Of a stretch of 64,000 nt of DNA, positions 48,716 through 64,000 are shown piece by piece (the stretch's first letter is position 1; the number at the start of each line of letters is the position of its first letter). The notes beneath the pieces were generated by a model. The model saw nothing but the letters and a program-made list of their open reading frames with translations, was not told where the DNA came from and searched no databases. The stretch comes from an uncultured Actinomycetes bacterium (GTDB taxonomy: Bacteria; Actinomycetota; Thermoleophilia; Gaiellales; JAICJC01), in the NCBI GenBank assembly GCA_963718315.1, contig CAVQZC010000003.1:151748-215747 (forward strand), given 5' to 3'. The translations under genes were made by a program, and so were the position numbers.

Positions 48716-49122
48716 GCCCCCGCCGTCGCGAACTCGGTTGTGCAGTAGGCGCAGCGCGAGGCTGCCACCGGGATCTCACTCAGGCACTCGGGGCACGGCC
48801 GCGTCGTCGGCGGGCCGTCCTCGCCCGCACGCCTTGCCTTCAGGTGGTTGACGGGCTTGACGACGAAGAAGAAGATCGCCGCCGCGATGGACAGGAATGC
48901 GATCACCGCGTTGAGGAACGAGCCGTAGTAGAAGACGCTGCCGTTGATCGTGAACGTCAGCTGGCTGAAGTTCGGCTTGCCGCCGATCACGCCCAGGATC
49001 GGCGTGATGATGTCGCTGACGAACGCCGTGATGACCGCGCCGAACGCCACGCCCAGCACGACGGCGACGGCCAGGTCGATCACGTTGCCACGCAGGACGA
49101 AGGCCTTGAACTCGGAGAGCAC
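48712..49122 (-). CDS. mscL: Large-conductance mechanosensitive channel with a C-terminal zinc-ribbon-like tail
   Basis: MLSEFKAFVLRGNVIDLAVAVVLGVAFGAVITAFVSDIITP is the canonical MscL N-terminus. The tail carries CPEC...CAYC. Confidence 0.88.
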   Translation of the reverse strand: MLSEFKAFVLRGNVIDLAVAVVLGVAFGAVITAFVSDIITPILGVIGGKPNFSQLTFTINGSVFYYGSFLNAVIAFLSIAAAIFFFVVKPVNHLKARRAGEDGPPTTRPCPECLSEIPVAASRCAYCTTEFATAGA

Positions 49123-49216
49123 TGGCGACCTCCAGGTCGGGGGAACTCGGGTCCGAAGCGATGCTAGATCAGGCCTGGGTCTAGTGCAGAGACCCGGATG
49201 CGCGTACCTTTGTGTG

Positions 49217-49822
49217 ATGGGGTTGCGTCCTCCTACGCTCCGTGAGGAGCTTCTGGCTCTTGCCCGTCAAGACGCCGATCTGCGCGCCGAGCTGGCCCGC
49301 GACGGCCGCCTCTGGCAGGGATACGACCCACTCCTGCAGCGGGTGCACCACCGCAACGTCGCCCGCCTGGAAACGATCGTCGACGAGTACGGTTGGCCGG
49401 GCGAGGACGAGGTGGGCGAGGACGGCGCCGAGGCCGCGTGGCTGGTCGTCCACCACGCGATCTGCGACCCCGCGCTGCAGCGTCAGATGCTGCCGCTGCT
49501 GGTGCAGGCCGCCGACGAGGGGCGGATTCCGGCGTGGCAGCCGGCCGTGCTCCTGGACTGCATCCGGTATCACGAGGGGCGCCCGCAGGTCTACGGCAGC
49601 GCCTTCGACTGGGACCGTTCGGGCCGCATGAGCCCCTGGCGGATCGAGAACCGGGCCGAGGTGGACGTCCGTCGTGCGGCCGTGGGCCTGCCACCGCTCC
49701 GCGAGAGCACCCGGCGGGTGCGCGCGGCGACCGCAGCCGACCGTGTGTCGGCCCCCATCGACCTGGCCGAGCGCCGCGCCCAGAAGGAGCAGTTCGACCG
49801 CGCCCTCGGCTGGCGCACCTAA
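49217..49822 (+). CDS. Hypothetical protein
   Basis: ATG 49217 is preceded by TACCTT + 6 nt (leaderless-type). 201 aa of ordinary composition. I recognise no family with confidence. Confidence 0.55.
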   Translation: MGLRPPTLREELLALARQDADLRAELARDGRLWQGYDPLLQRVHHRNVARLETIVDEYGWPGEDEVGEDGAEAAWLVVHHAICDPALQRQMLPLLVQAADEGRIPAWQPAVLLDCIRYHEGRPQVYGSAFDWDRSGRMSPWRIENRAEVDVRRAAVGLPPLRESTRRVRAATAADRVSAPIDLAERRAQKEQFDRALGWRT

Positions 49823-49840
49823 CGCCAGCGTCAGGGCTTC

Positions 49841-50347
49841 CTAGTCCAGGAAGGTCACGAGCTGGTCGACCGGCGCCCTCGGCGGCGGTTCCCAGTCGCG
49901 GGCGGCCGTGCCCAGGTGGAGCAGCCCCAGCACCCGCTCGCCGTCGGCGATCTGCACCGCCCGCCGGCCGGCATCGGTGCGGAGCACGCCAGGTGTGCGC
50001 CAGTAGGTCGCGATCCCGCGGGCGTGGGCGGCCAGCATGACGATGTAGACGGCGCAGGCGCCGGACAGCAGATCCTCCTCGGCCTGCTGGGGATCCTCGT
50101 CGGTGGTGACCGAGCAGGCAACGAGCGTCGGTGCCCGGTCGAGCTTGGCGGCGCCGTCGGGGTCGGCTGCCTTCAGCCGCGCCAGCGCTTCAGTCCCGAG
50201 CACCCGGAACCGCCACGGGTTCGTCACGTGGTGGTTCGGCGCCCAGCGGCCGAGCTCGAGCAGCTCCTCGAGCACAGGCCGCGGTACCGGTTCCGGTCGG
50301 TAGAGCTTGTGCGTGCGCCGTGTCCGGATCGCGTCATCGACGTTCAT
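49841..50347 (-). CDS. Nitroreductase family protein
   Basis: 168 aa. RRTHKLYRPEPVP...WAPNHHVTNPWRF is typical of the nitroreductase fold. Confidence 0.8.
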   Translation of the reverse strand: MNVDDAIRTRRTHKLYRPEPVPRPVLEELLELGRWAPNHHVTNPWRFRVLGTEALARLKAADPDGAAKLDRAPTLVACSVTTDEDPQQAEEDLLSGACAVYIVMLAAHARGIATYWRTPGVLRTDAGRRAVQIADGERVLGLLHLGTAARDWEPPPRAPVDQLVTFLD

Positions 50348-50373
50348 CGTCCGACAGGCTACACTCGCCCGCG

Positions 50374-51480
50374 ATGAAGATCCGCGCAGCCGTGCTGGAG
50401 GAGTTCGGGGAGCCGCTGGTCGTCCAGGAGGTCGACCTCGCGGAGCCGCACGCGGGCGAGGTGCTGGTGCGCCTGGTTGCGTGCGGGGTCTGCCACACCG
50501 ACCTCTACACCGCGTCGGGAGCGGACCCGTCGGGCTACTCGCCCACCGTGCTCGGGCATGAGGGCGCAGGCGTCGTCGAACGCGTCGGCGAGGGCGTCAC
50601 CCTGGTCGAGCCGGGCGATCACGTCGTCACGCTGTTCTCGCCGCAGTGCGGCAAGTGCATCCACTGCCAGAGCTCGAAGACGAACCTCTGCCTTGCTATC
50701 CGCGACCAGCAGGGCAAGGGCTATCTGCCGGACGGCACGGCGCGGCTGTCGCGCGACGGCGAGCCGATCCGCCACTTCATGGGCACCAGCACGTTCGCCG
50801 AGTACACGGTGATGCCGGAGATCGCCCTGGCCAAGATCTCACCCGATGCACCCCTGGAGGGCGCCGCCCTGTTCGCCTGCGGGCTATCCACCGGCCTGGG
50901 GGCGGCGATCAACACGGCCCGGGTCGAGCCCGGGTCGACCTGCGTGGTGTTCGGCGCGGGAATGGTCGGCCTGGGGGCGGTCGCCGGCTGCCGGCTGCAG
51001 GGCGCCGAGCGGATCGTCTGCGTCGACCTGTCGGAGGAGCGGCTCGACCTGGCGCGCGGACAGGGTGCGACCGACGTGATGGTCGGCGGTGACGACTCCG
51101 TCGAGCGGATCGTCGAGATGACCGGCGGCTTCGGCGCCGACTACACCTTCGAGGCCACCGGCAACGTCAGGGTGATGCGCCAGGCCGTCGAGGCGGCACG
51201 GATGGGTTGGGGCCTGTGCACCGTGGCGGGCGTCGCCGGGCGCGGCGAGACCCTCGACATCGTCCCGCGCTTCCTGATCACCGGCCGGCGGGTGGCCGGC
51301 TCGTCGTTTGGCGGCGTCAAGGGCCGCGACGGAGTCCCCCGCTTCGTCGACCGGTGGCTGGCGGGCGAGATCGACGTCGACCCGTTCCTGTCCCACTCGA
51401 TCACGCTCGACGAGGTCAACCGCGGCTTCGAGCTGATGGAGGCGCAGGACGGCATCCGCAGCGTGATCTCCTTCGCATGA
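50374..51480 (+). CDS. Class-III zinc alcohol dehydrogenase (S-(hydroxymethyl)thiol / formaldehyde dehydrogenase type)
   Basis: ATG 50374. CGVCHTDLYTASGADPSGYSPTVLGHEGAG, PQCGKCIHCQSSKTNLC and MGTSTFAEYTV closely parallel class-III ADH. Confidence 0.88.
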   Translation: MKIRAAVLEEFGEPLVVQEVDLAEPHAGEVLVRLVACGVCHTDLYTASGADPSGYSPTVLGHEGAGVVERVGEGVTLVEPGDHVVTLFSPQCGKCIHCQSSKTNLCLAIRDQQGKGYLPDGTARLSRDGEPIRHFMGTSTFAEYTVMPEIALAKISPDAPLEGAALFACGLSTGLGAAINTARVEPGSTCVVFGAGMVGLGAVAGCRLQGAERIVCVDLSEERLDLARGQGATDVMVGGDDSVERIVEMTGGFGADYTFEATGNVRVMRQAVEAARMGWGLCTVAGVAGRGETLDIVPRFLITGRRVAGSSFGGVKGRDGVPRFVDRWLAGEIDVDPFLSHSITLDEVNRGFELMEAQDGIRSVISFA

Positions 51481-52181
51481 TCATCGAGCGTACAGAGCAC
51501 CCGACCTGGACGTCGAACGCCTACCTGGTGGCTGACGGCCCCGGCGGGCACGGCGTTCTCATCGACGGCAACGGCGTCACCGATCCCCTGCTCGAGCGCA
51601 TCGAGCAGGACGACATCACGATCACCCACATCCTCAACACGCACTCCCACCACGACCACGTGGTGGACAACGAGCGCTATCAGCAGCGCTTCGGCGTGCC
51701 GCTGCTGCGCTGGCCGGAGTTCGCCGACGAGCAGGTGATCGAATCGGGCGACCTTCGGATCCGCGGTCTCTACACGCCAGGGCACTGCCGCGACCACCTC
51801 AGCTTCGACGTCAACGGCACCGATGTCTTCACTGCGGACGTGCTCTTCAAGGGCACGCTGGGCGGCACCGCCGGCGGCGGTGAGACCGGGTATGCGGACA
51901 TCAAGCACTCGGTGATGGACCGGCTGATGAAGCTGGATCCCGCCACCGCTGTGCATCCCGGGCACACGCTGCCGACGACGATCGGCGACGAGTGGGAGAC
52001 CAACCCCTTCATCCGCATCTGGCGCGGGCTCGATCCCGAGGGCACCGATCAGTGCGAGGTCCGCGGTGAGCCGGCCACCCTCGTGCTCTGGGCGCCGGAC
52101 TACGACGGCACGAACAAGGCCTGGGTGCGCTTCCCGGACGGCCGCGACGCGATCGTCGGCGGCTCCCAGGTCACTCGCTGA
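51477..52181 (+). CDS. MBL-fold metallo-hydrolase (putative S-formylthiol hydrolase partner)
   Basis: ATGA overlap with the ADH stop. THSHHDH metal motif. The pairing with a class-III ADH mirrors the mycobacterial mscR-fmh arrangement (from memory). Confidence 0.75.
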   Translation: MIIERTEHPTWTSNAYLVADGPGGHGVLIDGNGVTDPLLERIEQDDITITHILNTHSHHDHVVDNERYQQRFGVPLLRWPEFADEQVIESGDLRIRGLYTPGHCRDHLSFDVNGTDVFTADVLFKGTLGGTAGGGETGYADIKHSVMDRLMKLDPATAVHPGHTLPTTIGDEWETNPFIRIWRGLDPEGTDQCEVRGEPATLVLWAPDYDGTNKAWVRFPDGRDAIVGGSQVTR

Positions 52182-52199
52182 GGGCCGCCTGAGTTTCTG

Positions 52200-52926
52200 C
52201 TAGCCGCGCTTGAAGATGCCGCGCCAGCCGCTGCCGTCGTTCTCGCCGGAGGCGAGATCGCGAAGCGCCGAGACGTCGATCTGCGCGTCGCCCTCGGGCT
52301 CGCGGCCTCCGGACAGGATGCGGTCGATGCGGGCGACGCTGTCGGCGTCGATGTCGATGAAGCGGCAGCCGACCACGATGTGCCCTGGCGGCGGCGGCCG
52401 GGCGCACCGATGCGACGCGAACCTCGCCCGCGATCGAGTCGGCGAAGAATCGGCCGTTGAAGACCAGCCGGTCGCCCTCGCGGAGCACGCGGGTGGTCGT
52501 GAATGCCACCCCGGTGCGGGAGAGATCCTCCAGCGACCCGTCCACCCGGTCACCGTCGACGATGTCGCGGCAGTTCACAGCTTCCAGCCAGGCCACGCCG
52601 CCGATCGGCACCCGCTGGGCGGAGCGCCGCGTGGTGTCGACCTCGCAGCCCATTGCCCGCATCCGGCAGACGGCCAGGTCGGGCGTGTGGTAGCTCGCGT
52701 CCTCCAACTGGAGCGGGATCACCCACGGCTGGCCGTCAGGCCCGATGACACGGCCGGTCAGCTCCATGCCGGTCTGCACCGACAATCGCGGCGCCGTTGC
52801 CACCACCAGGTCGTTCTCGATCCGGATGGCGTGCACCCGGATGAAGGCTCCGTCGGAGATCTCGAGCTCGACGTCTGGCTGCGCAAAGAGCAGGCCGACG
52901 GCTTCCGCGGGCGTGAACGGCGTCAT
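52200..52926 (-). pseudogene. PilZ-domain protein, one frameshift near 52390
   Basis: RRSAQRVPIGG...DLSRTGVAF (PilZ RxxxR / DxSxxG) lies in ORF 52171-52926. The C-terminal GHIVVGCRFIDIDADSVARIDRIL lies in ORF 52200-52553. Confidence 0.65.
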
Positions 52927-52990
52927 GAGGCACGTATCGGCCGCGCGACGCCGCTTCTTTACTGTTGGGCGCTCTAAGCCGCCGCCGTGG

Positions 52991-54304
52991 TCAGCCCGCG
53001 TTCACGACCTCGTCGAACTGGGCCTCCTCGGTCGATCCCCGAAGCGCCAGCGTCGACGACTCGCCGGCCGAGGCGGCGGTGGCCGCGCGGTCGAAGTAGC
53101 CGGCGCCGACCTCTCGCTGGTGGCGGGTCGCCGTATAGCCGTCCGCCTCCGAGGCGAACTCCCGCTCCTGCAGCTCGACGTAGGCGCTCATGCCGTCGCG
53201 CGCGTAGCCGTGGGCGAGGTCGAACATCGAGTGGTTGAGCGCGTGGAACCCGGCCAGGGTGATGAACTGGAACCGGTAGCCCATGCCGCCGAGCTCCCGC
53301 TGGAAGGCCGCGATCGTGGCGTCGTCGAGGTGCCGTTTCCAGTTGAACGAGGGCGAGCAGTTGTACGCCAGCAGCTTGCCCGGGAAGCGCTCGTGGATGG
53401 CGTCCGCGAACGTCTCGGCGTCGGCCAGGTCGGGTGTCGAGGTCTCGCACCAGATGACGTCGGCGTAGGGCGCGTACGCCAGGCCGCGCGCGATCGCGGA
53501 CTGAAGGCCGCCGGTGACCCTGAAGTAGCCCTCGGCCGTTCGCTCGCCGGTGATGAACGGATGGTCGCGCTCGTCGACGTCGCTGGTCAGCAGCGTGGCC
53601 GCGTCAGCGTCCGTGCGGGCGACCAGCACGGTCGGCACGTCCTGGACGTCGGCGGCGAGCCGCGCCGCGTTCAGGGTACGGATGAACTGCGAAGTCGGCA
53701 CCAGCACCTTGCCGCCCAGGTGGCCGCACTTCTTCTCGGAGGCGAGCTGATCCTCGAAGTGGACGCCGGCTGCGCCCGCCTCGATCATGCCGCGCATCAG
53801 CTCGAAGGCGTTCAGCGGGCCCCCGAACCCGGCCTCCGCGTCGGCGACGATCGGCGCCATCCAGTGCACCGACGTGTCGCCCTCCCCGAACGCGACCTGG
53901 TCGGCCCGCCGCAGCGCGTTGTTGATCCGCCGAACGACCGCCGGCACGCTGTTGGCCGGGTACAGGCTCTGGTCTGGGTACACCTGCTCGCCCAGATTTG
54001 CGTCGGCAGCCACCTGCCAGCCCGAGAGGTAGATCGCTTCCAGACCGGCGCGAACCATCTGCACGGCCTGGCCGCCCGTCATCGCCCCCAGGGCGTGGAT
54101 GTACGGGCCGCGGTGCATCAGATCCATCAGGCGCTCCGCTCCCATCCGGGCCAGGGAGTGCTCGACGCCGACGGTCCCCCGCAGCTGGATCACCTCGTCG
54201 GCCTCGTAGCGCCGCTGGATGCCCGTCCAGCGCTCGTCGTCTTGCCACTGCCGGTCGAGCCTCGCGGCTGCGCGATCGATCCGGGTCCGGTGCACCTCGT
54301 TCAT
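52991..54304 (-). CDS. aceA: Isocitrate lyase
   Basis: ATG 54304 with GGAGGAGG upstream. KKCGHLGGK catalytic motif, plus SPSFNW and ITLAGFH. Confidence 0.93.
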
Positions 54305-54405
54305 TGCCGCCTCCTCCGTTGGAGGCCGAGCATACGGCCAGATCTGCCATGCCACAAATCGATCTTTCAGGTGACAGTCATCGAGGATCTTTATAGAATG
54401 GAACG

Positions 54406-55347
54406 GTGAAGCGGATCGAGGCCTTCGTGGAGGTCGCCCGGCGCGGCAACGTCACTCGGGCGGCGGAGGCGCTGTTCGTGACGCAGCCGGCACTGACCGC
54501 TCGTCTGCAGTCGCTGGAGCGCGATCTCGGCGTGCGGCTGTTCGTCCGCTCCGGGCGGGGCGTGCGCCTGACCGAGCACGGACAGGCGTTCCTGCCGTAC
54601 GCGGAGCGCTCCGTCGAGGCGCTGGCTGACGGCCGGCGGCTGCTGGCCGAGCTGGAGCGGGGCGGTGCCGGGCAGCTGGTGATCGGCGCGGCCCCGGCGG
54701 TCTCGACGTACGTCCTGCCGTCGATCCTGGAGCGCTTCCACGCAGCCCATCCCCGCGTCCAGCTGACCGTTCGCACCGGCCACTCCGAGGAGGTGCTGGA
54801 GATGGTCGTCCGCCGCCAGGTGCAGGTGGGTCTGGTGCGGGCGCTCCGCCACCCCGAGCTGGCGGTGATTCCGCTGTACGAGGACGAGCTGGTACTGGTC
54901 ACCGATCCCGGGCATCCGTTCGCAGTGCGCCGGGAGATCGCGCTGGAGGCGATCGCCGGCGAGCGGCTGATCCTGTTCGACCGCGCGTCCAGCTACCACG
55001 ACCTGACCAGCGCATTCCTCGGCGAAGCGGGCGTCATTCCCGCCGGCTCGATGGAGCTCGACAACATCGACGCCACCAAGAAGATGGTGGCGCAGGGCCT
55101 GGGCGTCGCGCTGCTGCCGCGGACGGCAGTCGCCGAGGAGCTCGGGTCGGGGCGGCTGGCGTCGATCCGCATCCTGGACGCGCCGCCGCTGCGACGCCGC
55201 ATCGTCGCCCTCCACCGGCGGGAGCTGGCAGCGGCCAGCGGCATCCCCGGGGTGTTCCTTGACACCCTGGCCGAGATGCGCGCCGAGCTCCGTCTGGCGG
55301 GCGGTACGTTCGGGGCTGGTAAACCGCCGGGAGGCCCGCTAGCTTGA
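54406..55347 (+). CDS. LysR-family transcriptional regulator
   Basis: GTG 54406 preceded by TAGAAT + 6 nt. [38 protein letters not shown]. Divergent from aceA. Confidence 0.9.
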
Positions 55348-55352
55348 GACTG

Positions 55353-56237
55353 ATGGCACGTCGACTGGTCCCGGTTGGCCTCCTGGTAGCTGCGCTCGCA
55401 GCTGCGGGCTGCGGCTCTGCCGCGAGCGCTCACCACGCCCAGAAGCCGCGGACGATCAAGAAGTCGAGCTTCGTCGAGCTGGCCGCCAAGTCAGGGGCCC
55501 GCGCCAGGGCCGCCGGCAGTGCCCACATCACGCTGTCGATGTCGACGCGCATCGCCGGTTCGAATCAGGAGGGAGTCTCGATTCGGGGCAGTGGCGACGT
55601 CAGTTACAAGCCGCTCCGCGAGAGCCTGACGGTCAACCTGACCAGCGGGGTGCCCCGGCTCAAGGGCACCATGCACGAGGTCGTGACCCGGACGAAGCTG
55701 TTCATGAACTGGCCGCTGCTGAGCGCCCAGATCCCGGGTCACAAGCCCTGGGTCGAGGAAGACATGAGCGCGGTGGGCTCGGCGATGGGGATGAACATCA
55801 CCGGCTTGATGGCCCAGGGCAGCACCAGCAACCCGTCCCAGATGCTGACGTACTTGAAGGGTGTGTCCACGTTGAAGCTGGTCGGCCACGCGAGCCTCGG
55901 AGGTGTCGCCACCACCGAGTACACCGGCACGCTGGACTACGCGAAGCTGGCCGGCAAGGGCGTGATATCCAGGAAGATGCTCGACATGCTGCGCACCGAG
56001 CTGGGCGGCACCACCGTGCCGTTCAAGCTGTGGCTGGACGGCAACAAGATGGTGCGCCAGATGCAGATGGACATGCAGGTGACCGCGCCCAACGGCCCGA
56101 CCGCGCTGGTCCACGTCCAGTTCGGCTTCTCGAAGTTTGGCGAGAAGGTGCACATCGCGGTGCCGCCGGCCGACCAGGTCTACAACGCCACCAGGATGCT
56201 CTCGTCGCTCTCCTCGGGCGCCGGCTCGAGCAGCTAG
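55353..56237 (+). CDS. Putative lipoprotein
   Basis: MARRLVPVGLLVAALAAAGC lipobox. About 295 aa. Family not recognised. An alternative TTG start at 55344 overlaps the lysR stop. Confidence 0.6.
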   Translation: MARRLVPVGLLVAALAAAGCGSAASAHHAQKPRTIKKSSFVELAAKSGARARAAGSAHITLSMSTRIAGSNQEGVSIRGSGDVSYKPLRESLTVNLTSGVPRLKGTMHEVVTRTKLFMNWPLLSAQIPGHKPWVEEDMSAVGSAMGMNITGLMAQGSTSNPSQMLTYLKGVSTLKLVGHASLGGVATTEYTGTLDYAKLAGKGVISRKMLDMLRTELGGTTVPFKLWLDGNKMVRQMQMDMQVTAPNGPTALVHVQFGFSKFGEKVHIAVPPADQVYNATRMLSSLSSGAGSSS

Positions 56238-57085
56238 AGCAGCGTGATCACGGCCGCGATCGCCAGCGGCACGATGAACCAGCCGACGAACGTGAGCGCG
56301 ATCGCAACCACCGCCAGCGTCCGGCTCTCGTCGCGCGGTGGGTGGCCGCAATGCCCGATCGTCTCGTAGAGAGCCCGGAGCGCCGGCGTGACGCCCACGG
56401 CGATCCGCCGGTGCGCCAGGCCGGCGCCCTGCAGCAGCACCCACGACATCGCACCGAATACGGCCACCAGGACGATGCCGAGCGCGATCACGACCGGGCT
56501 GCCCTCTTTCTTGACGACGCCGGCTGACCGGGCGACCGACGCCAGCACGGGCAACGCGGCACCGCCGATCAGCACGGTCGGGATCGGCAGCCCACCGCCC
56601 TTGAATCCGACCACCAGCCGGTCGGCCTGGATCCGCGCACGGGCCAGCGATCGCCGCTCCTGGCTCATCACGGGCGCCTGCGCCTCGCGGCGGGCGTAGA
56701 GCATCGCCAGGTTGCGGATCACCCGCGCCACGTACCCCCGGACGATGGTGCGGGAGACGAACTCGATCGCGCTCTGGGCGAGGCTGCTGAACGGGCCGAG
56801 CCGGGGAATCTTGGGATTCCGCCAGCCCTGCCGGTCGGCAACCTCGAGCGCGCGCATCGTCAGCCGGTGGGCCTGCTCGAAGTGGTCGGGATGGGCGAGC
56901 GGCTGCGTGAACGCCAGCTCCGCCATCATCTCCGCCTCGGCGCGTGTGTTGATGCCAACCTCGTCCAGCGCGCGCTCGACGGCCTGCGACGGATCGCCCG
57001 TGATCAGCCGGTAGGTCTCACTCAACCGGTCGACGATCAGGTTGCCGTCGTCGGCCTCCCCGGCCGGCCGCTCGCGGTCAGACAT
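56234..57085 (-). CDS. Hypothetical membrane protein
   Basis: ATG 57085 (MSDRERPAGE...). The C-terminal half has three or four TM helices. I recognise no family. Confidence 0.5.
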   Translation of the reverse strand: MSDRERPAGEADDGNLIVDRLSETYRLITGDPSQAVERALDEVGINTRAEAEMMAELAFTQPLAHPDHFEQAHRLTMRALEVADRQGWRNPKIPRLGPFSSLAQSAIEFVSRTIVRGYVARVIRNLAMLYARREAQAPVMSQERRSLARARIQADRLVVGFKGGGLPIPTVLIGGAALPVLASVARSAGVVKKEGSPVVIALGIVLVAVFGAMSWVLLQGAGLAHRRIAVGVTPALRALYETIGHCGHPPRDESRTLAVVAIALTFVGWFIVPLAIAAVITLL

Positions 57086-57142
57086 CGCGCCTACGCTACC
57101 CGCCGCGCCGGTCGGCCCCGCCGAGGCCGCTGCTAGGTTCGC

Positions 57143-58421
57143 ATGATGGACCCGACGGTTGACCCTGCCCTGCAATCGGAGCTGTCAGCCGCCGTCGCGG
57201 CCGAGACGGACGCGGGCGTCGACCTGCTCCGCCGACTGGTCGAGCAGCCCACGGTGCTGGGCAACGAGGAGCCCGGCCAGGCGGTGATGGCAGAGGCCTA
57301 CCGCGAGCTGGGACTGCAGCCGGTCGACGTGCCGATGGATGCCGCGGAGCTGCGCGCCCACCCCCACGCCGCACCCTTCTCGTGGGACGTCACCGGCAAG
57401 CGCAACGTGGTCGCCGGGCTCGGCGGTGACGGAGGCGGCCGATCGCTGATCTTCAACGGCCACATCGACGTGGTCAGCTCCCAGCCCGACCGCCTGTGGA
57501 GCACGCCGCCGTTCCGCCCCACCATCGACGGCGACTGGATGTACGGGCGCGGCGCGGGCGACATGAAGTCGGGGCTGGTCGCGGCGGTGATGGCTGCGGC
57601 CGCGCTGCGCCGGGTCGGGGTCGAGCCGGCAGGCCGGCTGACGCTGCAGTCGGTGGTCGAGGAGGAGTGCGGCGGCAACGGCGCTCTGGCCTGCGTGGCC
57701 GCCGGCTACACGGCCGACGCCTGCGTCGTGATCGAGCCGTTCGGCGCCACCCTCACGACCGCCCAGGTCGGGGTGCTGTGGTTCGACGTCACCGTCGCCG
57801 GCCACCCCGTGCATGTCGCCGATGCCGGCGAGGGTGCCAACGCAATCGAGGCCAGCTACCACATCATCCGGGCGCTCCGCGAGCTGGAGGCGGAGCTGAA
57901 CACCGATCCACCCCCGGCCTTCGCCGCGTACCCCCATCCATTGAACCTGAACGTTGGAGTGATCGAGGGTGGGGACTGGAGGTCGACGGTGGCGGGAGAG
58001 TGCGTAACCCGCTTCCGGCTGGCTCGCTACCCGGGCGCGCCGCTGGAGGAGCTGCGAGACCGGATCGAGGAGGTCGTCGCGCAAGCGTCGCGGACGCACC
58101 CCTACCTGGCCGAGCATCCCGCGGTCGTCTCCTACGACGGGTTCGACTGCGAGGGGTACGAGCTCGCCTGCCGACGAGGACGTGATCACCGGGCTGCGCG
58201 CCTGCCACAGGACGGTGACCGGGACCGATCCCGAGCTGGTCGCCACCACCGCCACCACCGACGCCCGCACCTTCGGGCTCTACGGCGGCATCCCCAGCAC
58301 CTGTTTCGGTCCCTACGGCGAGGGCTACCACGCGGCGGACGAACGCGTCTTCCTGCCGTCGATCACGACCACGGCTCAGGTGCTTGCCCTGATGGTCTGC
58401 TCGTGGTGCGGTGTGCGGTGA
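57143..58421 (+). pseudogene. M20 family deacylase (ArgE/DapE-like), one frameshift near 58170
   Basis: FNGHIDVV, GRGAGDMKSG and EEECGGNG are in ORF 57143-58807. The C-terminal ...VITGLRACHRTVTGTDPELVATTATTDARTF...GEGYHAADERV is in ORF 58182-58421. The start may be the second ATG at 57146 (TAGGTT + 6 nt). Confidence 0.78.
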
Positions 58422-58494
58422 GCAGGCCCGGAGACTTCGAATTTCGCGCCTCGACCTGTACCATCGGCTGCAAACGCCAAGTGGGAGGGTTTAG

Positions 58495-59958
58495 GTGCCG
58501 ACGCTCGACGCTCCGCTCGAGGGAATCTCGGATATTCGCAGGTACTTCCGCACCAACGAGACGCCGATCTACTTCGTCTCCGCGACCGCGTTCAACCTGC
58601 TTGGCATCGACCGCTGGGTCCGCAACTTCCGCTTCGTCAATTACTACGACTCCTTCGACGGGCACCACCCCAACGTGTTCGTGCCCGGGGAGCGCAGCCC
58701 ACGCGCGTTCACGTCGATCGAGGAGATCTGCAACTACCTGCTCGGCCACAAGGAGGTCGGGGACTGGATGCGGACCCGCGGCGAGGGCGGGAAGGCGGTG
58801 TTCCTGATGTTCGACCCCGAGACCGAGGAGCTGGCCGGTGAGCTCGGCCTGAAGGTGGCGTTCCCTCCGGCCTCGCTTCGCAACCGCCTCGACTCCAAGA
58901 TCGAGACCACCCGGATCGGCAACGAGGCCGGCGTGCCCAGCGTCCCCAACGCCCTCGGCCGGTCGATCACGTACGCCGCGCTGACCAACCTCGCAGCCGA
59001 CGCCGGCCTCGGCACCGACCTGGTCGTGCAGACGCCGTACGGCGACTCCGGCCAGACGACGTTCTTCATTGCCAACGAGGGCGACTGGAACGAGCACTCC
59101 GAGAAGCTGCTGGAGGAGGAGCTGAAGGTGATGCGCCGCATCAACTGCCGCGAGCTCGCGATCGAGGGCGTGATCACCCGCCACGGAACGCTGGTCGGAC
59201 CGCTGATGACCGAGCTGGCGGGGTTCCCCGAGCTGACGCCGTACGGTGGGGGCTGGTGCGGCAACGACGTCCACGCCTCGGTGCTCGACCAGGCCGGACG
59301 CGACCAGGCGAGGGCGCGCACCCGTGCCATCGGCGAGCGGCTGCGCCAGGAGGGCTACCGGGGGTACTTCGAGCTCGACTTCCTGGCCGACATCGACAGC
59401 GGCGAGATGTACCTGGGCGAGCTGAACCCGCGGGTCACCGGTGCATCGTCGATGACGAACGTCACGGCCGTTGCCTACGGCGACATGCCGCTGTTCCTGT
59501 TCCATCTGCTCGAGTTCATGGACGTCGACTACGAGATCGACGTCGACGCGCTCAACGAGCGCTGGGCGCAGCCGCAGAGCATCGATGCCTGGAGCCAGTT
59601 CATCCTCAAGCAGACCGACGACACGGTCGAGATGATCAGCGATGCGCCGACCTCGGGTATCTGGAGCATGTCGGCCGACGGGTCGATCAGGTTCGTGCGC
59701 CGCGACACGGACTGGCACACCGTCGCCGACGAGGACGAGGCGTTCTACCTGCGGATCGCCCAGGCCGGCCAGTACCGCTATCCGGGGGCGGATCTCGGGA
59801 TCCTGGTGACCCGCGGACGGCTGATGGACGACCACGGCGAGCTCACCGAGCGGGCTCACCGCTGGATCTCGGGGATCAAGTCCGAGTTCCATGGAACCCC
59901 GGCCGCGCCGTCCGCCGTGATGCCGCAACCTGAGCCTTTCTCGTTCAAGATGCTGTGA
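58495..59958 (+). CDS. ATP-grasp family carboxylate-amine/peptide ligase with pre-ATP-grasp N-domain (PGM1-like by recollection)
   Basis: 487 aa. GTG start with GGGAGGG upstream. ATP-grasp core ...LVVQTPYGDSGQTTFFI...GYFELDFLAD...YLGELNPRVTGAS. Confidence 0.7.
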   Translation: MPTLDAPLEGISDIRRYFRTNETPIYFVSATAFNLLGIDRWVRNFRFVNYYDSFDGHHPNVFVPGERSPRAFTSIEEICNYLLGHKEVGDWMRTRGEGGKAVFLMFDPETEELAGELGLKVAFPPASLRNRLDSKIETTRIGNEAGVPSVPNALGRSITYAALTNLAADAGLGTDLVVQTPYGDSGQTTFFIANEGDWNEHSEKLLEEELKVMRRINCRELAIEGVITRHGTLVGPLMTELAGFPELTPYGGGWCGNDVHASVLDQAGRDQARARTRAIGERLRQEGYRGYFELDFLADIDSGEMYLGELNPRVTGASSMTNVTAVAYGDMPLFLFHLLEFMDVDYEIDVDALNERWAQPQSIDAWSQFILKQTDDTVEMISDAPTSGIWSMSADGSIRFVRRDTDWHTVADEDEAFYLRIAQAGQYRYPGADLGILVTRGRLMDDHGELTERAHRWISGIKSEFHGTPAAPSAVMPQPEPFSFKML

Positions 59959-60976
59959 ATGAAGCGAGCCATGCAACACGAGATTTCTGAGATCCCGTTC
60001 ACGTTCGAGGCCATCGACGAGCCCCTTCCGGGGCTGCGCTGGCAGCGTCTGTTCGAGGAGCGCTGGCCGGCCTACCGCAGGTGGTTCCTGCACGCCGGCG
60101 AGGCGAACCTGTCGAGCTACGCGGTCTGCCGCCGTCAGCTCCGCGACCACATGCCGGAGCTGCTCGGCACCTACGACCGGCTGGTCGAGCTGGCCGGCGG
60201 CGGCGACCTGGCGGCCCGGATGCTCTCGATGTGGAACCCGCCCTCGTACCTGTCGGGCTGCTCGCAGGCGGTGCTGGACGCGCGGGCGGCCGCTGCTGGT
60301 GCGCAACTATGACTACGCACCCTCGCGGCTGGAGGGCGTGATCCTGGGCACGAACTGGGAAGGCCGCGGCGTGATCGGCATGAGCGACTGCCTGTGGGGC
60401 CTGCTGGACGGCGTCAACGACGCCGGCTTCGGCGTCTCGCTGGCCTTCGGCGGCCGGCCGGTGACGGGCGAGGGCTTCGGCGTGCCGCTGGTGCTCCGCT
60501 ACCTGCTGCAGGTGTGCGAGACGGTGGAGGATGCCCGCGAGGTGCTCGCGCGGCTGCCCTACCAGCTCGCCCACACGCTGACGATGGCCGACCGCTCGGG
60601 CGGTGTGTTGACCGCATACCTGGCGCCCGACCGTGCCGTCGAGTTCCGCGAAGCCTCCGCCGCAACCAACCACCAGGGCGCCGTCGAGTGGACGGAGCAC
60701 GCCGCCGCCACCCGCTCGCTGGAGCGCGAGCACTGCATGACGGCGCTGCTCGACGACCCCGCGGTCACGGAGCAGGAGTTCCTGGACGCGTTCCTCAAGC
60801 CGCCGCTGTGGAGCGGCACCTACTCCAAGGGCTTCGGCACGCTCTACACGGCGGTGTACGACCTGCAGGCGGGCTCGGTGACCTACGTCTGGCCCGACTC
60901 GTCGTGGAAGTTCGCGTTCGGCGATTTCCACGAGGGAGCGCGCGTGGAGCGCTTCCACGAGGTCTCCGCAGCCTGA
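59959..60976 (+). pseudogene. Peptidase C45 / acyl-CoA:6-APA acyltransferase-like Ntn hydrolase, one frameshift near 60285
   Basis: The ATG directly follows the ATP-grasp stop. SGCSQAVL (putative autoproteolytic Gly-Cys) is in ORF 59959-60312. LLVRNYDY... and the remainder are in ORF 60299-60976. Confidence 0.7.
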
Positions 60977-60991
60977 TCTTTCGGCGCAGAT

Positions 60992-61020
60992 TTGACGCGG
61001 TAGTGAGTATTCACTAACCT
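60992..61020 (+). promoter_or_regulatory. tetR promoter with overlapping 9/11 palindrome (candidate TetR operator)
   Basis: TTGACG (60992-97), 17 nt, TAACCT (61015-20), 6 nt, ATG 61027. Inverted repeat GGTAGTGAGTA / TATTCACTAAC at 60999-61018. Confidence 0.45.
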
Positions 61021-61026
61021 GCGGCG

Positions 61027-61647
61027 ATGGCCGTGAGCAGTGAGACCGTCCGCCTCCGCATGACCGGTGACGACCGCCGGGCGCAGATCCTCGCCGTGGG
61101 TCGCGAGGTGTTCGCAGAGCGCGGGTTCCATGCCGCGGGGACGGCGGAGATCGCCGCCCGTGCGGGCTGCTCCGAGCCCACGATCTACAAGCACTTCCCG
61201 TCGAAGCAGGCGCTGTTCGCCGCCGTGCTCGAGGACGCCACCGAGCGTACCCGCGAGCACATCGAGCAGATCATCGGCGACACCGACGACCCGATCCAGG
61301 CGATCGTCGAGAGCGGCTGCGGCTCCCATGAGGTGGTCGCCCAGACGTGGCGTCTGCGCATGCTCGCCATCACCCTGCTCGACGATCCGCAGATCCGGGA
61401 TGCAATCAACCACAGCGTCGGCGCGCTGCGCGACCGGTTCGCCGCCGCGGCGAGCACGTCGCAGGAGCGGGGCATCTATCGCTCCGACGTCGATCCCGAC
61501 CAGATGGCCTGGATGTGGCTCGGGATCACCTTCGCCATGGGCTACCGGCGGGCCGTCGAGGACGACGTGCCCTTCGACCGGATCGCAGACCTTGCACGCA
61601 TGTTCGTGCGCACCTTGAGGGTTGCGCCAGCAGAGGAGGCACCGTGA
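61027..61647 (+). CDS. TetR-family transcriptional regulator
   Basis: RRAQILAVGREVFAERGFHAAGTAEIAARAGCSEPTIYKHFPSKQALF is a TetR_N HTH. Confidence 0.9.
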   Translation: MAVSSETVRLRMTGDDRRAQILAVGREVFAERGFHAAGTAEIAARAGCSEPTIYKHFPSKQALFAAVLEDATERTREHIEQIIGDTDDPIQAIVESGCGSHEVVAQTWRLRMLAITLLDDPQIRDAINHSVGALRDRFAAAASTSQERGIYRSDVDPDQMAWMWLGITFAMGYRRAVEDDVPFDRIADLARMFVRTLRVAPAEEAP

Positions 61648-63221
61648 TAGAGGAACACCCCAACCGCAAGTGGTGGACGTTGTTCGCCATGTGCTTCGCG
61701 CTGTTCATGATCATGCTCGACAACACGGTCGTGAACGTGGCGCTGCCCTCGATCCAGCGGGCGCTGAGAACGACGCCCGAGAACCTCGAGTGGACGATCA
61801 ACGCCTACGTGCTGACGTTCGCCGGGTTCATTCTGCTGGGCGGCAAGCTGGGCGACCGGTTCGGGCGTAAACGGCTGTTCCTGGTCGGCCTTACGGTCTT
61901 CACGGCATCGAGCGCAGCCTGCGCGTTGTCCTCGACGGATACGCAGCTGATCGCCTCGCGCGTGGTGCAGGGCGTCGGCGCGGCGTTCCTGAACCCGCTG
62001 TCGCTCTCCATCCTGGTCTCGGCATTCCCCCGCAAGCAGCTGCCCACCGCCATTGGCATCTGGGCCGGCATCTCCGGCCTGGGCCTGGCGATCGGCCCAC
62101 TGCTCGGCGGCTTCCTGGTCCAGAACGTCTCGTGGTCGGCCGTGTTCTGGATCAACGTCCCGATCGGCATCGTTGCCTTCGCAGTCACCATCTGGGCGGT
62201 CATCGAGTCCCGCGACCCGTCGGCGAAGCACATCGACATCGTCGGGACGTTGCTCGTCACCGGTGGCCTGTTCGCGCTCACCTGGGGCCTGATCAAGACC
62301 GACAGCCACTCGTGGACGTCGCTCTACATCATCGGCTTCCTGGCGCTGGCGACAGTGCTGCTGGTCGGCTTCGTGGTGTGGGAGCTGCGGCAGAGCGACC
62401 CGATGATCCCGCTTGGCTTCTTCCGCAAGCCCGCGTTCAGCATCTCCAGCCTGGTCGTGCTGATGGTGGGCGTGGCGATGTTCGGCGTCATCTACTTCAT
62501 CACCCTCTACTTCCAGAACATCCACGGCTACTCGCCGCAGCAGGCCGGCCTCCGGTCGCTGCCGCTGACCGCGATGGTCGTCCTGGTCGCCCCGATCGCC
62601 GGCCGTCTGAACGGCAGGGTCGGGCCGCGGCCGCTGATGACGATCGGCATGGCAGGGATGGCGCTGGGGCTGCTCGGCCTCGCTCAGATCGGCGTCGACA
62701 CCAACTACCTGTACCTGATCCCGATGTTCCTGGTGATGGGCGCGGGCATCTCGATGACCATGCCGTCGGTGACATCGGCGGCGATGGGATCGGTCGACCC
62801 GACCAAGGCGGGCATCGCCTCGGGCGTGGTCAACTCGTCGCGGCAGGTGGGCGGTGCGCTCGGCGTCGCGGTGTTCGGCTCGATCGCGGCGACGCTGGCC
62901 TCGGACGCGTGGTCAAGCTCGATCTCGAAGCTGCCGGCCGCGGCCCATGCCGGCGCGGCGCAGCTGACGCCGCTCGTGATCGGCGGCCAGACGGCCAAGA
63001 TCGGCCATATCGCAACGGCGACGTCCGGCGCGGTCGCCGGCAAGGTGGCATCCGACGATGCGGCCGCTGCCTTCATGCACGGCTTCCACGGCGCGATGTA
63101 CGCGGGTGCCCTGATGGCCGCCGCGGCGTCGGTGACGGCCTTCGTCGGCCTCCGCAACGTCCGCGTCCGGCAGCCGCAGGAACAGCAGGCCGAGCAGCCG
63201 ATGGCTGCCGTCGAGATGTAG
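61644..63221 (+). CDS. MFS drug:H+ antiporter, DHA2 (EmrB/QacA, 14-TM) family
   Basis: GTG 61644 (GTGA overlap with the tetR stop). FMIMLDNTVVNVALPSI, LGGKLGDRFGRKRLF and the overall length fit DHA2. Confidence 0.88.
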   Translation: MIEEHPNRKWWTLFAMCFALFMIMLDNTVVNVALPSIQRALRTTPENLEWTINAYVLTFAGFILLGGKLGDRFGRKRLFLVGLTVFTASSAACALSSTDTQLIASRVVQGVGAAFLNPLSLSILVSAFPRKQLPTAIGIWAGISGLGLAIGPLLGGFLVQNVSWSAVFWINVPIGIVAFAVTIWAVIESRDPSAKHIDIVGTLLVTGGLFALTWGLIKTDSHSWTSLYIIGFLALATVLLVGFVVWELRQSDPMIPLGFFRKPAFSISSLVVLMVGVAMFGVIYFITLYFQNIHGYSPQQAGLRSLPLTAMVVLVAPIAGRLNGRVGPRPLMTIGMAGMALGLLGLAQIGVDTNYLYLIPMFLVMGAGISMTMPSVTSAAMGSVDPTKAGIASGVVNSSRQVGGALGVAVFGSIAATLASDAWSSSISKLPAAAHAGAAQLTPLVIGGQTAKIGHIATATSGAVAGKVASDDAAAAFMHGFHGAMYAGALMAAAASVTAFVGLRNVRVRQPQEQQAEQPMAAVEM

Positions 63222-63230
63222 GATTCGCCC

Positions 63231-63650
63231 ATGGGCAACGCGTACGTCGGACTGGCGATCGGCTGGTGGCTGATCGCCCTCGTGATTGTCGTGGGGGGAA
63301 GCGTGCTGATCGCCACCGCCTTCCGGAAGATGCCGGTCGCCCGCGCCGTGACCGGCGGGATCATGGCCATCGCGCTGGTGGCGGTGGCGACCTGGGTGGT
63401 CGCAAACTACGCCGCCCGCCAGAAGAACCTCCAGGGCGTGACCACCGTGCCGCCGTTCCACTGGCACAGCCACGTCCTGCTGCTCGTGATCACGGTCTTC
63501 GCCCTGGGCATCCTCCTGACCACCGGGGTTGGCGCGATCGCAGAGCGGCGGCGGCGCACGGCGTGGAAGTGGCAGATCGCGTCACTGCTGACGGCGGGCA
63601 TCGCGCTCGGCGTGCTGGTCGCTCTGCCCGAACGGCACCTGGCGAGCTGA
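63231..63650 (+). CDS. Hypothetical small membrane protein (4 TM)
   Basis: 139-aa hydrophobic ORF starting 10 nt after the MFS stop. Confidence 0.5.
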   Translation: MGNAYVGLAIGWWLIALVIVVGGSVLIATAFRKMPVARAVTGGIMAIALVAVATWVVANYAARQKNLQGVTTVPPFHWHSHVLLLVITVFALGILLTTGVGAIAERRRRTAWKWQIASLLTAGIALGVLVALPERHLAS

Positions 63651-63657
63651 CCGAGCC

Positions 63658-64000
63658 GTGACGTTCACGCAGGCGCCCCACCGGCCCTCGGCTGTCGGCG
63701 TTCACGGCATGGTCGCGACCAGCTCGCCGCTGGCCGCGCTGGCCGGGCTGGGCGCGCTGGAGCAGGGCGGTAACGCCTGCGACGCCGCGCTGGCGGCGGC
63801 GGGCGTGCTGGCGGTCGTCGAGCCGAACCAGTGCGGCCCCGGCGGCGACCTGTTCGCGATCGTTGTCAAGGATGGCGAGGAGCCTGTCGGCCTCAACGCC
63901 AGCGGCCGCTCACCGATGCAGCCGGGTGACCGGCTGCCCGAGGAGTTCGGCCCCCGCAGCGTCACCGTGCCGGGGTGCGTCAGCGGCTGGCACGAGCTGG
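63658..64000 (+). CDS. ggt: Gamma-glutamyltransferase, 3' end runs off window
   Basis: GTG 63658. GVHGMVATSSPLAALAGLGALEQGGNACDAALAAAGVLAVVEPNQCGPGGDLFAIV matches the conserved GGT N-terminus. The frame is open to the window end. Confidence 0.8.
   Translation, partial: MTFTQAPHRPSAVGVHGMVATSSPLAALAGLGALEQGGNACDAALAAAGVLAVVEPNQCGPGGDLFAIVVKDGEEPVGLNASGRSPMQPGDRLPEEFGPRSVTVPGCVSGWHEL

Follow-up and report, generated by a model that had tools for sequence, protein, structure and literature searches.

A conserved ATP-grasp/C45 gene pair in an uncultured Gaiellales bacterium and its possible role in amine catabolism

What do an ATP-grasp enzyme and a C45-family protein do together, and which of their neighbouring genes belong to the same pathway? 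This question is raised by a locus in a 64,000-nucleotide stretch of DNA from an uncultured Actinomycetes bacterium (Thermoleophilia, Gaiellales; NCBI GenBank assembly GCA_963718315.1, contig CAVQZC010000003.1, positions 151,748 to 215,747), which is referred to as the window throughout. Three genes near its 3′ end form a tight co-directional unit on the plus strand: an M20 deacylase of the ArgE/DapE family (57143–58421), an ATP-grasp enzyme of 487 amino acids (aa) with a GTG start codon (58495–59958) and a proenzyme of the C45 (AAT) family of cysteine N-terminal-nucleophile (Ntn) proteins (59959–60976). The ATG of the C45 gene directly abuts the TGA of the ATP-grasp gene (TGAATG). A preliminary description, made from the sequence alone, had read this trio and the efflux and γ-glutamyltransferase (GGT) genes behind it as a pathway for a small amide-linked metabolite with dedicated export. 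The order and strand of the three genes and the abutting start codon were confirmed. The conserved unit, however, is the pair of ATP-grasp and C45 genes, and M20 is a frequent lineage-specific third member. It is more probable that the pair stands for an unknown step of catabolism than for a make-and-export pathway.

Conservation and gene context of the pair

Gene neighbourhoods were compared in several sets of loci. The close set comprised 80 loci from species-representative genomes, mostly metagenome-assembled genomes (MAGs) of Actinomycetes, Thermoleophilia and Gaiellales, with ATP-grasp identities of 71–79 %. The distant set consisted of 80 metagenome loci collected with a profile of distant relatives, which was built from a 9-sequence subset; an alignment of 32 sequences was too diverse. 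Most ATP-grasp proteins of this set are proteobacterial- or Bacteroidota-like, and a few are close actinobacterial relatives. Nine annotated plasmid loci and five loci from other phyla with precomputed Pfam calls were also included.

The C45 gene started at most 400 nucleotides (nt) downstream of the ATP-grasp gene in 76 of the 79 evaluable close genomes, in 48 of 62 distant metagenome loci and on all nine plasmids. When the distance was extended to 2.5 kb, 51 of the 62 metagenome loci contained it. Gaps between the two genes measured 0 to approx. 40 nt, and the genes are adjacent in Actinomycetota, Pseudomonadota, Bacteroidota, Gemmatimonadota, Chloroflexota, Acidobacteriota and Planctomycetota. 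M20 was found within 500 nt upstream of the ATP-grasp gene in 51 of 76 close genomes, in 3 of 65 upstream-evaluable metagenome loci and on none of the plasmids. Only 4 of the 80 metagenome loci carried M20 at any position, and these were of the actinobacterial type. The expected recurrence of the trio therefore held for the actinobacterial loci, where M20 lies directly upstream and C45 directly downstream, but not elsewhere, where M20 occurs in only 3–4 of 80 loci. Even within the Actinomycetota, M20 is present or absent in an otherwise identical syntenic frame (genes for a 175-aa protein and an NlpC/P60 protein upstream, GroES downstream). M20 homologues with 42–46 % identity are found on plasmids in unrelated contexts, together with peptide transporters or CoA-transferase/thiolase genes. 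As partners of the pair, M20 and a C-N hydrolase are mutually exclusive.

Some loci deviate from these patterns. The only close relative with a non-contiguous pair is a complete actinobacterial chromosome (OY969787.1; locus L063, 11449–12570), in which ATP-grasp and C45 are about 1.1 kb apart. A MAG labelled Planctomycetaceae (L061) carries an actinobacterial-type M20/ATP-grasp/C45 trio with 74 % identity to the window protein, unlike the Planctomycetota locus L174, which has a decarboxylase-type operon; mis-binning or recent transfer is likely for L061. On Rhizobium leguminosarum plasmid p3 (L083, 9431–12391), insertions of IS30 and ISNCY have left just 80 codons of C45, and on several Sinorhizobium medicae and S. 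meliloti plasmids the C-terminal 40 % is all that is retained of the ATP-grasp protein. On some symbiosis plasmids, the cassette is decaying.

The genes downstream of the trio are distributed differently. TetR together with a major facilitator superfamily (MFS) permease was found in 13 of 80 close genomes, and GGT in 3 of 80. Neither was present in the distant metagenome loci or on the plasmids, and the distance of TetR-MFS from C45 varied between 50 nt and approx. 4 kb. Because of these low counts and the variable spacing, neither the dedicated export nor the γ-glutamyl link of the preliminary description has comparative support. It is only in the Gaiellales-like lineage of the window that exporter and GGT accompany the pair. 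Exporter or tailoring genes that are conserved together with the core enzymes, as in a secondary-metabolite cluster, were not found in the compared loci.

Outside the Actinomycetota, the pair usually belongs to an operon with the order aldehyde dehydrogenase (ALDH), class-III aminotransferase, C-N hydrolase, Orn/Lys/Arg decarboxylase (OKR_DC_1; 900–977 aa), ATP-grasp, C45 and APC amino-acid permease. Clustering of open reading frames from 86 non-actinobacterial loci, tblastn with reference proteins and Pfam-annotated contigs all agree on this arrangement. It was seen in Gemmatimonadota (GCA_040905325), Anaerolineae (GCA_020634855), Acidobacteriota (GCA_016125275) and Planctomycetota (GCA_039182735), in the Bacteroidota member Chondrinema litorale, and in the alpha- and betaproteobacteria Roseobacter, Rhizobium, Sinorhizobium and Cupriavidus. 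The genes are co-directional, and their stop and start codons overlap in Gemmatimonadota, Acidobacteriota, Planctomycetota and one 8-Mb genome. The Anaerolineae locus contains the same operon genes, and its C-N hydrolase is separated from the decarboxylase by several small genes unrelated to the operon. Among the distant metagenome loci, the decarboxylase gene was located directly upstream of the ATP-grasp gene in 47 of 65 evaluable cases and anywhere in the locus in 60 of 80. A C-N hydrolase was present in 43, a class-III aminotransferase in 29 and an ALDH in 24 of the 80 loci; the partner counts of this set are lower bounds, many contigs being truncated. The Chondrinema aminotransferase passes the curated cut-off for γ-aminobutyrate (GABA) transaminase. 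The C-N hydrolase scores highest with N-carbamoylputrescine amidase and the decarboxylase with lysine decarboxylase models, in both cases far below the cut-off.

Three further contexts were seen. On plasmids of Roseateles, Shinella and Sinorhizobium sp. RAC02, the pair lies inside a cluster for the conversion of arginine to 4-guanidinobutyrate and GABA. This cluster codes for an amino-acid permease, an arginase-fold ureohydrolase, 5-guanidino-2-oxopentanoate decarboxylase (AruI), ALDH, D-amino-acid dehydrogenase, a racemase-arginase fusion and RidA, and is adjoined by a C-N hydrolase and an Lrp regulator. The fusion (L081, 11798–13585) is annotated as a 595-aa 'alanine racemase' and has an unusual architecture of Ala_racemase_N and an arginase fold. 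Over approx. 15 kb, the clusters of Roseateles sp. XES5 (L081), Shinella zoogloeoides (L084) and Sinorhizobium sp. RAC02 (L089) share 90–97 % protein identity. As the first is a betaproteobacterial record flagged UNVERIFIED_ORG and the other two are alphaproteobacterial plasmids, this likeness suggests recent horizontal transfer or a mislabelled organism. In Thermoleophilia loci, ALDH, two class-III aminotransferases and a Rieske oxygenase are encoded upstream of the pair. A sub-type (L101, L104, L106, L114 and L118) consists of decarboxylase and ATP-grasp and contains no C45, C-N hydrolase or aminotransferase; it is flanked by genes for a urea-transporter/M23-peptidase fusion and a membrane acyltransferase_3 protein on the opposite strand. 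The sub-type decarboxylase is preceded by a conserved protein of 138–145 aa, which has this position in 22 loci overall and is weakly glyoxalase-like in one member and matches no Pfam family in another. At the end of the Gemmatimonadota operon, the permease gene is directly followed by a histone-deacetylase-family gene (PF00850; L171, 13190–14098), which lies 2.7 kb downstream of C45. Acetylpolyamine amidohydrolases belong to the same family, so this gene is a possible hint at N-acyl-polyamine chemistry. Nothing in the gene context suggested an anti-phage defence system (no PADLOC search was made).

Since the dominant context is a catabolic operon with an amino-acid importer, it argues for breakdown or salvage of amines and not for an exported product. 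The preliminary description, or a variant of it, would instead have the genes make a small amide-linked compound (dipeptide-like, a compatible solute or a signal) for export by the MFS protein. C45 would then be an acyltransferase or an ammonia-supplying, glutaminase-like subunit, while M20 would trim or recycle the product. ATP-grasp ligases do make dipeptides, and the profile of the ATP-grasp family weakly matches the ligases BesA and PGM1. An ATP-grasp enzyme paired with an Ntn amidotransferase is known from the synthesis of N-acetylglutaminylglutamine amide, and the founding C45 member, from which the family takes its name, is an acyltransferase. In the window, tetR-MFS starts only 50 nt past C45, and the sub-type of decarboxylase and ATP-grasp exists without the catabolic genes. 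Against this stand the importer, the GABA-type aminotransferase and the ALDH of the canonical operon, the scarcity and variable position of TetR-MFS and GGT, and the lack of other biosynthetic genes nearby. Moreover, TetR and DHA2 pairs are usually self-contained efflux units. Biosynthesis followed by export is thus an improbable function of the module.

The ATP-grasp, C45 and M20 proteins

The ATP-grasp protein passes the model NF005096/PRK06524, which carries the NCBI name 'biotin carboxylase', with 754.9 bits over residues 6–477 (cut-off 684). The window protein was assigned to no Pfam family, as Biotin_carb_N, CPSase_L_D2 and Biotin_carb_C all remained below the gathering score; some homologues give faint CPSase_L_D2 matches. 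More than 7,600 homologues were found at E≤1e-5, and at E≤1e-30 there were 391 cluster representatives (clustered at 50 % identity). Identity is approx. 74 % across actinobacterial classes and 50–55 % between phyla. Longer homologues contain no informative extra domains and look like mis-called starts.

An AlphaFold2 model calculated from an alignment of 138 sequences reached a predicted local distance difference test score (pLDDT) of 90.8 and a predicted template-modelling score of 0.89; an earlier model based on 14 sequences (pLDDT 60) was discarded. In a Foldseek search of the PDB with this model, the top 50 structures were all biotin carboxylase (BC) domains or PurK, aligned over the full length with E-values from 5e-19 to 1e-16, template-modelling scores of 0.5–0.6 and identities of 11–15 %. 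The profile matched PDB sequences of the BC domains of pyruvate carboxylase and methylcrotonyl-CoA carboxylase at approx. 1e-12 and carbamoyl phosphate synthetase at approx. 1e-4, BesA and PGM1 being weaker. A RimK, Ddl or CarB fragment was rejected, as the fold search ranks BC and PurK alone at the top. The region that had been described as an extra N-terminal domain turned out to be the ordinary pre-ATP-grasp N-domain of BC/PurK-type enzymes.

The 138-sequence profile was aligned by hhalign with Escherichia coli AccC. At an alignment probability of only 61 %, BC residues K116, E276 and E288/N290/R292 are kept as K135, E293 and E309/N311/R313, whereas Q179, T232, T315 and A317 stand at BC positions K159, K238, Q294 and E296. 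K135 and E309/N311/R313 are invariant. The protein hence combines the three-domain fold with the lysine and the E-x-N-x-R motif for Mg and ATP. Two further motifs, GDSGxTTFF and GGWCGN, are family-specific and absent from BC.

These data bear on the name under which the family is filed. If the name were right, the protein would be a genuine BC subunit of an acyl-CoA or pyruvate carboxylase, and the NCBIfam assignment and the BC-like fold are consistent with that. However, none of the hallmarks of an AccC-type enzyme was found: the Pfam BC domains stay below threshold, identity to BC structures does not exceed 11–15 %, and the catalytic K238 and E296, like K159 and Q294, are not kept in the alignment mentioned above. 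No gene for a biotin carboxyl carrier protein (BCCP) or carboxyltransferase was detected in the approx. 180 loci inspected, among them the window, its close relative L090 (described below), the plasmid loci and loci L171–L175; the constant partner is C45. A genuine BC subunit is therefore extremely improbable. As neither a biotin carrier nor a carboxyltransferase is encoded near any member, we do not file the protein as a biotin carboxylase; it is an uncharacterised member of the BC/PurK structural branch. The missing biotin machinery and the constant C45 partner also indicate that the NCBI name of the family is probably wrong. Membership in a characterised housekeeping family, which would have refuted the preliminary description, is excluded by the same features.

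The C45 protein was analyzed in a frame-repaired form (see below). It matches PF03417 (6e-28; 98.5 bits, cut-off 23.2) and NF040521 (155.3 bits, cut-off 85). The SGCSQ motif noticed earlier occupies residues 99–103, and the codon of Cys101 lies at 60259–60261. This cysteine is invariant in 131 homologues and is mostly preceded by glycine, which is consistent with a predicted Gly-Cys processing site. Across the same sequences, Cys101 and approx. 55 other positions are at least 95 % conserved, RNYD (115–118), N153, R180, N237 and Q239 are kept, and the 100-residue pro-segment is strikingly conserved. The C45 enzyme Tan from insects hydrolyses beta-alanyl-amines (PMC10194958), and AzsT removes an N-succinyl protecting group (PMC10445470). 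With these two, Tri14 and isopenicillin-N acyltransferase, the protein shares the AAT fold as defined by Pfam and, as predicted here, a cysteine nucleophile exposed by self-cleavage after glycine. It differs from the characterised enzymes in its distinct conserved pro-segment and in its constant pairing with an ATP-grasp enzyme, which has not been reported for them. A sequence search of solved structures gave no detectable relative of the protein.

The M20 protein, 425 aa long when repaired, scores 490 bits against NF005306 (cut-off 376) and 295.6 bits against TIGR01910 (cut-off 217.6). PF01546 and the dimerisation domain PF07687 are present. Metal-binding and catalytic residues (H107/D109, D140, E174/E175, E198 and H396) could be read in the sequence, an assignment made by motif and not from a structure.

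Possible reaction sequence and alternatives

The core of the module may be a two-enzyme cassette, in which an ATP-grasp enzyme of the BC/PurK branch and a translationally coupled C45 amidohydrolase or acyltransferase act on an amine or guanidino-amine that stems from a basic amino acid, by ATP-dependent modification of a nitrogen followed by cleavage. This is our favoured interpretation, with a probability of about 0.38. The amine released by the decarboxylase would be the most likely substrate of the ATP-grasp enzyme, because the decarboxylase stays a neighbour even where C45 is missing. The ATP-grasp enzyme would attach a small acyl or carboxyl group to the amine nitrogen at the expense of ATP. 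An organic acid, formate, acetate or bicarbonate might serve as donor, activated as acyl- or carboxy-phosphate. The modified amine could then be transaminated and oxidised at its other end without cyclising; aminotransferase and ALDH suggest that the carbon chain would become an omega-amino acid and a dicarboxylate. C45 would later cleave or transfer the group via a Cys101 thioester. Completion of the deacylation or decarbamoylation might fall to another amidohydrolase; in most phyla this would be the C-N hydrolase, in the actinobacterial lineage of the window M20. The window itself holds only the reduced form of M20, ATP-grasp and C45.

The overall logic of protection, oxidation and deprotection would be that of γ-glutamylation in the Puu/Pau pathways and of succinylation in the arginine succinyltransferase (AST) pathway, carried out by unrelated enzymes. 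In the Puu pathway, an ATP-dependent ligase works together with an oxidoreductase, an ALDH and a hydrolase, and the route ends in GABA and succinate (PMC9397018). In Puu/Pau (PuuA, PuuB, PuuC, PuuD and PuuE; putrescine and cadaverine), a ligase masks the amine, ALDH and a GABA-type aminotransferase are clustered, and a cysteine hydrolase unmasks the product. However, PuuA is glutamine-synthetase-like and PuuD has a class-I amidotransferase fold, where our module has ATP-grasp and C45. Enzymes of the PuuA and PuuD type were not found, so the likeness is one of pathway logic only. In addition, the module lacks a conserved FAD oxidase, its ligase and hydrolase genes are adjacent, and the extra C-N hydrolase or M20 and the decarboxylase belong to the unit.

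AST combines N-acylation with a class-III aminotransferase, an ALDH and a deacylase. The M20 enzymes ArgE, DapE and LysK are classical deprotecting enzymes, and LysX is an ATP-grasp protein. The M20 protein of the window scores among the relatives of ArgE, DapE and LysK. In contrast to our module, AST uses succinyl-CoA instead of ATP; a LysW-type carrier was not seen here, and C45 is without counterpart there. An ATP-grasp amide synthetase and a cysteine amidase acting on the same polyamine amide are known from glutathionylspermidine synthetase/amidase, which is a single fused protein with a CHAP amidase and a homeostatic role; it shows no sequence relationship to the present proteins beyond the ATP-grasp superfamily. 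By analogy, the module appears to resemble known protect-deprotect amine catabolism, with unrelated enzymes and an unexplained third hydrolase.

Several points weigh against the two-enzyme cassette as formulated. No member of the ATP-grasp family has a known substrate or product, and in every context the annotated route to GABA can be written without ATP-grasp and C45. Two hydrolases, C45 and either C-N hydrolase or M20, exceed the needs of a simple protect-deprotect scheme. The genes of the Puu ligase and hydrolase are not adjacent, whereas ATP-grasp and C45 are nearly always coupled; such near-constant coupling is more easily reconciled with consecutive steps or with a complex. The window contains no decarboxylase, aminotransferase or ALDH beside the trio. 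Furthermore, the nearest structural relatives found by Foldseek use bicarbonate and not organic acids, and lineage synteny alone could account for M20 and C-N hydrolase excluding each other.

The main alternative would be a biotin-independent N-carboxylase acting together with an amidase. The substrate, agmatine, 4-guanidinobutyrate or an N-carbamoyl amine, would be carboxylated at a guanidino or ureido nitrogen by means of carboxyphosphate formed in a PurK-like manner. C45 would deiminate or hydrolyse the resulting N-carboxy intermediate, which is labile, and removal of the remaining carbamoyl group would be left to the C-N hydrolase or M20. There is an enzymatic model for the first step: PurK (N5-CAIR synthetase) and its like can carboxylate a substrate nitrogen without biotin. 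The ATP-grasp protein shares the three-domain fold of BC and PurK over its full length and keeps their ATP/Mg motifs. It is distinguished from them by its low identity (11–15 %), by Q, T, T and A in place of K159, K238, Q294 and E296, and by the absence of a carrier, carboxyltransferase or PurE partner. In favour of N-carboxylation, all top 50 structural neighbours are BC or PurK, and profile matches to solved structures are overwhelmingly BC domains. That ATP-grasp and C45 are coupled almost obligatorily would be explained if the product were labile. The resemblance of the C-N hydrolase to N-carbamoylputrescine amidase fits as well, as do AruI, a guanidinobutyrase-like ureohydrolase and urea transporters in some contexts.

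Such a route would run parallel to urea amidolyase and the guanidine carboxylase pathway. In these systems, an ATP-dependent BC-type enzyme and subsequent amidohydrolases release ammonia and CO2 from a resonance-stabilised C-N group. The guanidine carboxylase pathway, which comprises a carboxylase, carboxyguanidine deiminase and allophanate hydrolase, is a precedent for ATP-dependent breakdown of guanidino compounds (PMC12186494). Some contexts of the pair are related to guanidino compounds or urea. However, urea amidolyase and guanidine carboxylase are biotin-dependent multidomain enzymes with unrelated hydrolases, whereas the ATP-grasp protein is a single module of 487 aa. Carboxyltransferase and BCCP domains, allophanate hydrolase and a guanidine riboswitch were not found with the pair. 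Neither a guanidine riboswitch nor any other was detected by Rfam: the window gave no match at E≤1 and eight canonical loci gave none at the gathering score. Other observations speak against N-carboxylation, too. Thr and Ala stand in place of BC K238 and E296, and Gln in place of K159, as far as the alignment at 61 % probability can be relied on. ATP-free deiminases and ureohydrolases already perform such chemistry, and ureohydrolases are encoded in the same cluster in Roseateles and Shinella. Finally, the decarboxylase scores best against lysine decarboxylase models, and cadaverine contains no guanidino group. We consider this alternative doubtful.

A further proposal concerns the family as a whole. 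The PRK06524 family may consist of biotin-independent, PurK-like N-carboxylases (or small-acid N-ligases). With C45 as obligate partner, they would perform a hitherto unrecognised ATP-dependent step, in which amines of the agmatine, putrescine or cadaverine type have their nitrogen stripped off or masked. Such a step would supply the missing chemistry at the core of a seven-gene operon that converts basic amino acids to GABA, is conserved in at least seven phyla and is mis-annotated in thousands of genomes. This idea can be put forward only with low confidence.

No publication on the ATP-grasp family or the operon was found in the open-access literature. A pathway containing the trio was not found there either, in agreement with the preliminary description. 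Papers on S. meliloti SMa0680-0684 were set aside, as they concern other decarboxylase genes and not this operon.

Frame breaks and neighbouring genes in the window

The module region of the window has a G+C content of approx. 70 %, and two of its three core genes are interrupted. Frame breaks had been located before at 58170 and 60285. They are present, and in comparison with contig L090 they result from one extra G at 58166 in the M20 gene and one at 60273 in the C45 gene, four codons after the nucleophile. L090 (ENA ERZ25039458) stems from another sample, overlaps the window from 48496 to 64000 and is 99.2 % identical over these 15.5 kb. M20 (425 aa) and C45 (334 aa) are uninterrupted in L090, and the ATP-grasp proteins are 100 % identical. 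Downstream of the C45 nucleophile, the consensus of 131 homologues is matched by the reading of L090, ...CSQAVWTRGRPLLVRNYDY, but not by that of the window. Relatives with an identity of at least 90 % likewise have intact genes on contigs from JGI, Logan and ENA, with C45 proteins of 334–338 aa. A cluster look-up of the 264-kb source contig returned only fragments of 79, 113 and 225 aa.

The frameshifts could be real mutations, and M20 and C45 pseudogenes of a module that is decaying in this genome. The fragments are indeed carried by the deposited 264-kb contig, and two of three adjacent genes are affected. On the other hand, both genes are intact in a 99.2 %-identical contig, and no other substitutions hint at relaxed selection, the ATP-grasp protein being unchanged. 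Moreover, 19 single-base gap openings separate window and L090 over 15.5 kb, and both assemblies contain split genes of their own, which is the signature of long-read indel noise. In L090, for instance, an alcohol dehydrogenase is called as two pieces (region 48731–52389 of the window). Decay of the module in this genome is accordingly quite unlikely, and comparison of the two sequences indicates that both frameshifts are most likely assembly errors. Because of this noise, other apparent pseudogenes in the window should be distrusted as well. The window instance is a reduced actinobacterial form of the module, read from a noisy assembly.

The genes downstream of C45 were all found on the plus strand in the order described earlier. 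A TetR-family regulator (61027–61647; PF00440, 1.9e-19) is preceded by the 16-nt palindrome TAGTGAgtatTCACTA at 61001–61016, 10 nt upstream of its start codon. This palindrome, a candidate TetR operator, is AT-rich within the G+C-rich region; it was read by eye and missed by the repeat search at the settings used. The GTG start codon of a DHA2-family MFS efflux permease (61644–63221; TIGR00711, 311 bits, cut-off 230; PF07690) overlaps the tetR TGA as GTGA, so that the permease gene is translationally coupled to tetR. It is followed by a gene for a hydrophobic, multi-pass protein of 139 aa (63231–63650), which is conserved in L090 and matched no Pfam or NCBIfam model above cut-off. The last gene is the 5′ part of GGT (its first 114 codons), which starts with GTG at 63658 and continues past the window end at 64000 (PF01019, 1.2e-18 on a fragment of approx. 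115 aa); GGT is called in L090, too. Judged from sequence and gene order, TetR-MFS, the small membrane protein and GGT appear to be neighbouring units without demonstrated linkage to the module. No sigma-70-like promoter or intrinsic terminator was detected between 56900 and 64000. According to the L090 annotation, a gene of the isocitrate-lyase/phosphoenolpyruvate-mutase family on the minus strand and a divergent LysR regulator are located approx. 2–4 kb upstream of the module (52991–55347).

For the window, these results mean that exporter and GGT are not to be read as parts of the module and that its frameshifts are probably assembly noise. For the family, they mean that a protein labelled 'biotin carboxylase' in thousands of genomes is probably misnamed, and resolving its function would correct a large annotation error. 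The pair stands at the centre of a widely conserved operon that leads a basic amino acid via decarboxylation towards GABA, and no known pathway scheme needs either enzyme. Once worked out, the reaction of the pair would be a new enzymatic step, and possibly new ATP-dependent C-N chemistry, in polyamine and arginine catabolism, which is relevant to nitrogen turnover in soil, to rhizobial symbiosis plasmids and to marine bacteria.

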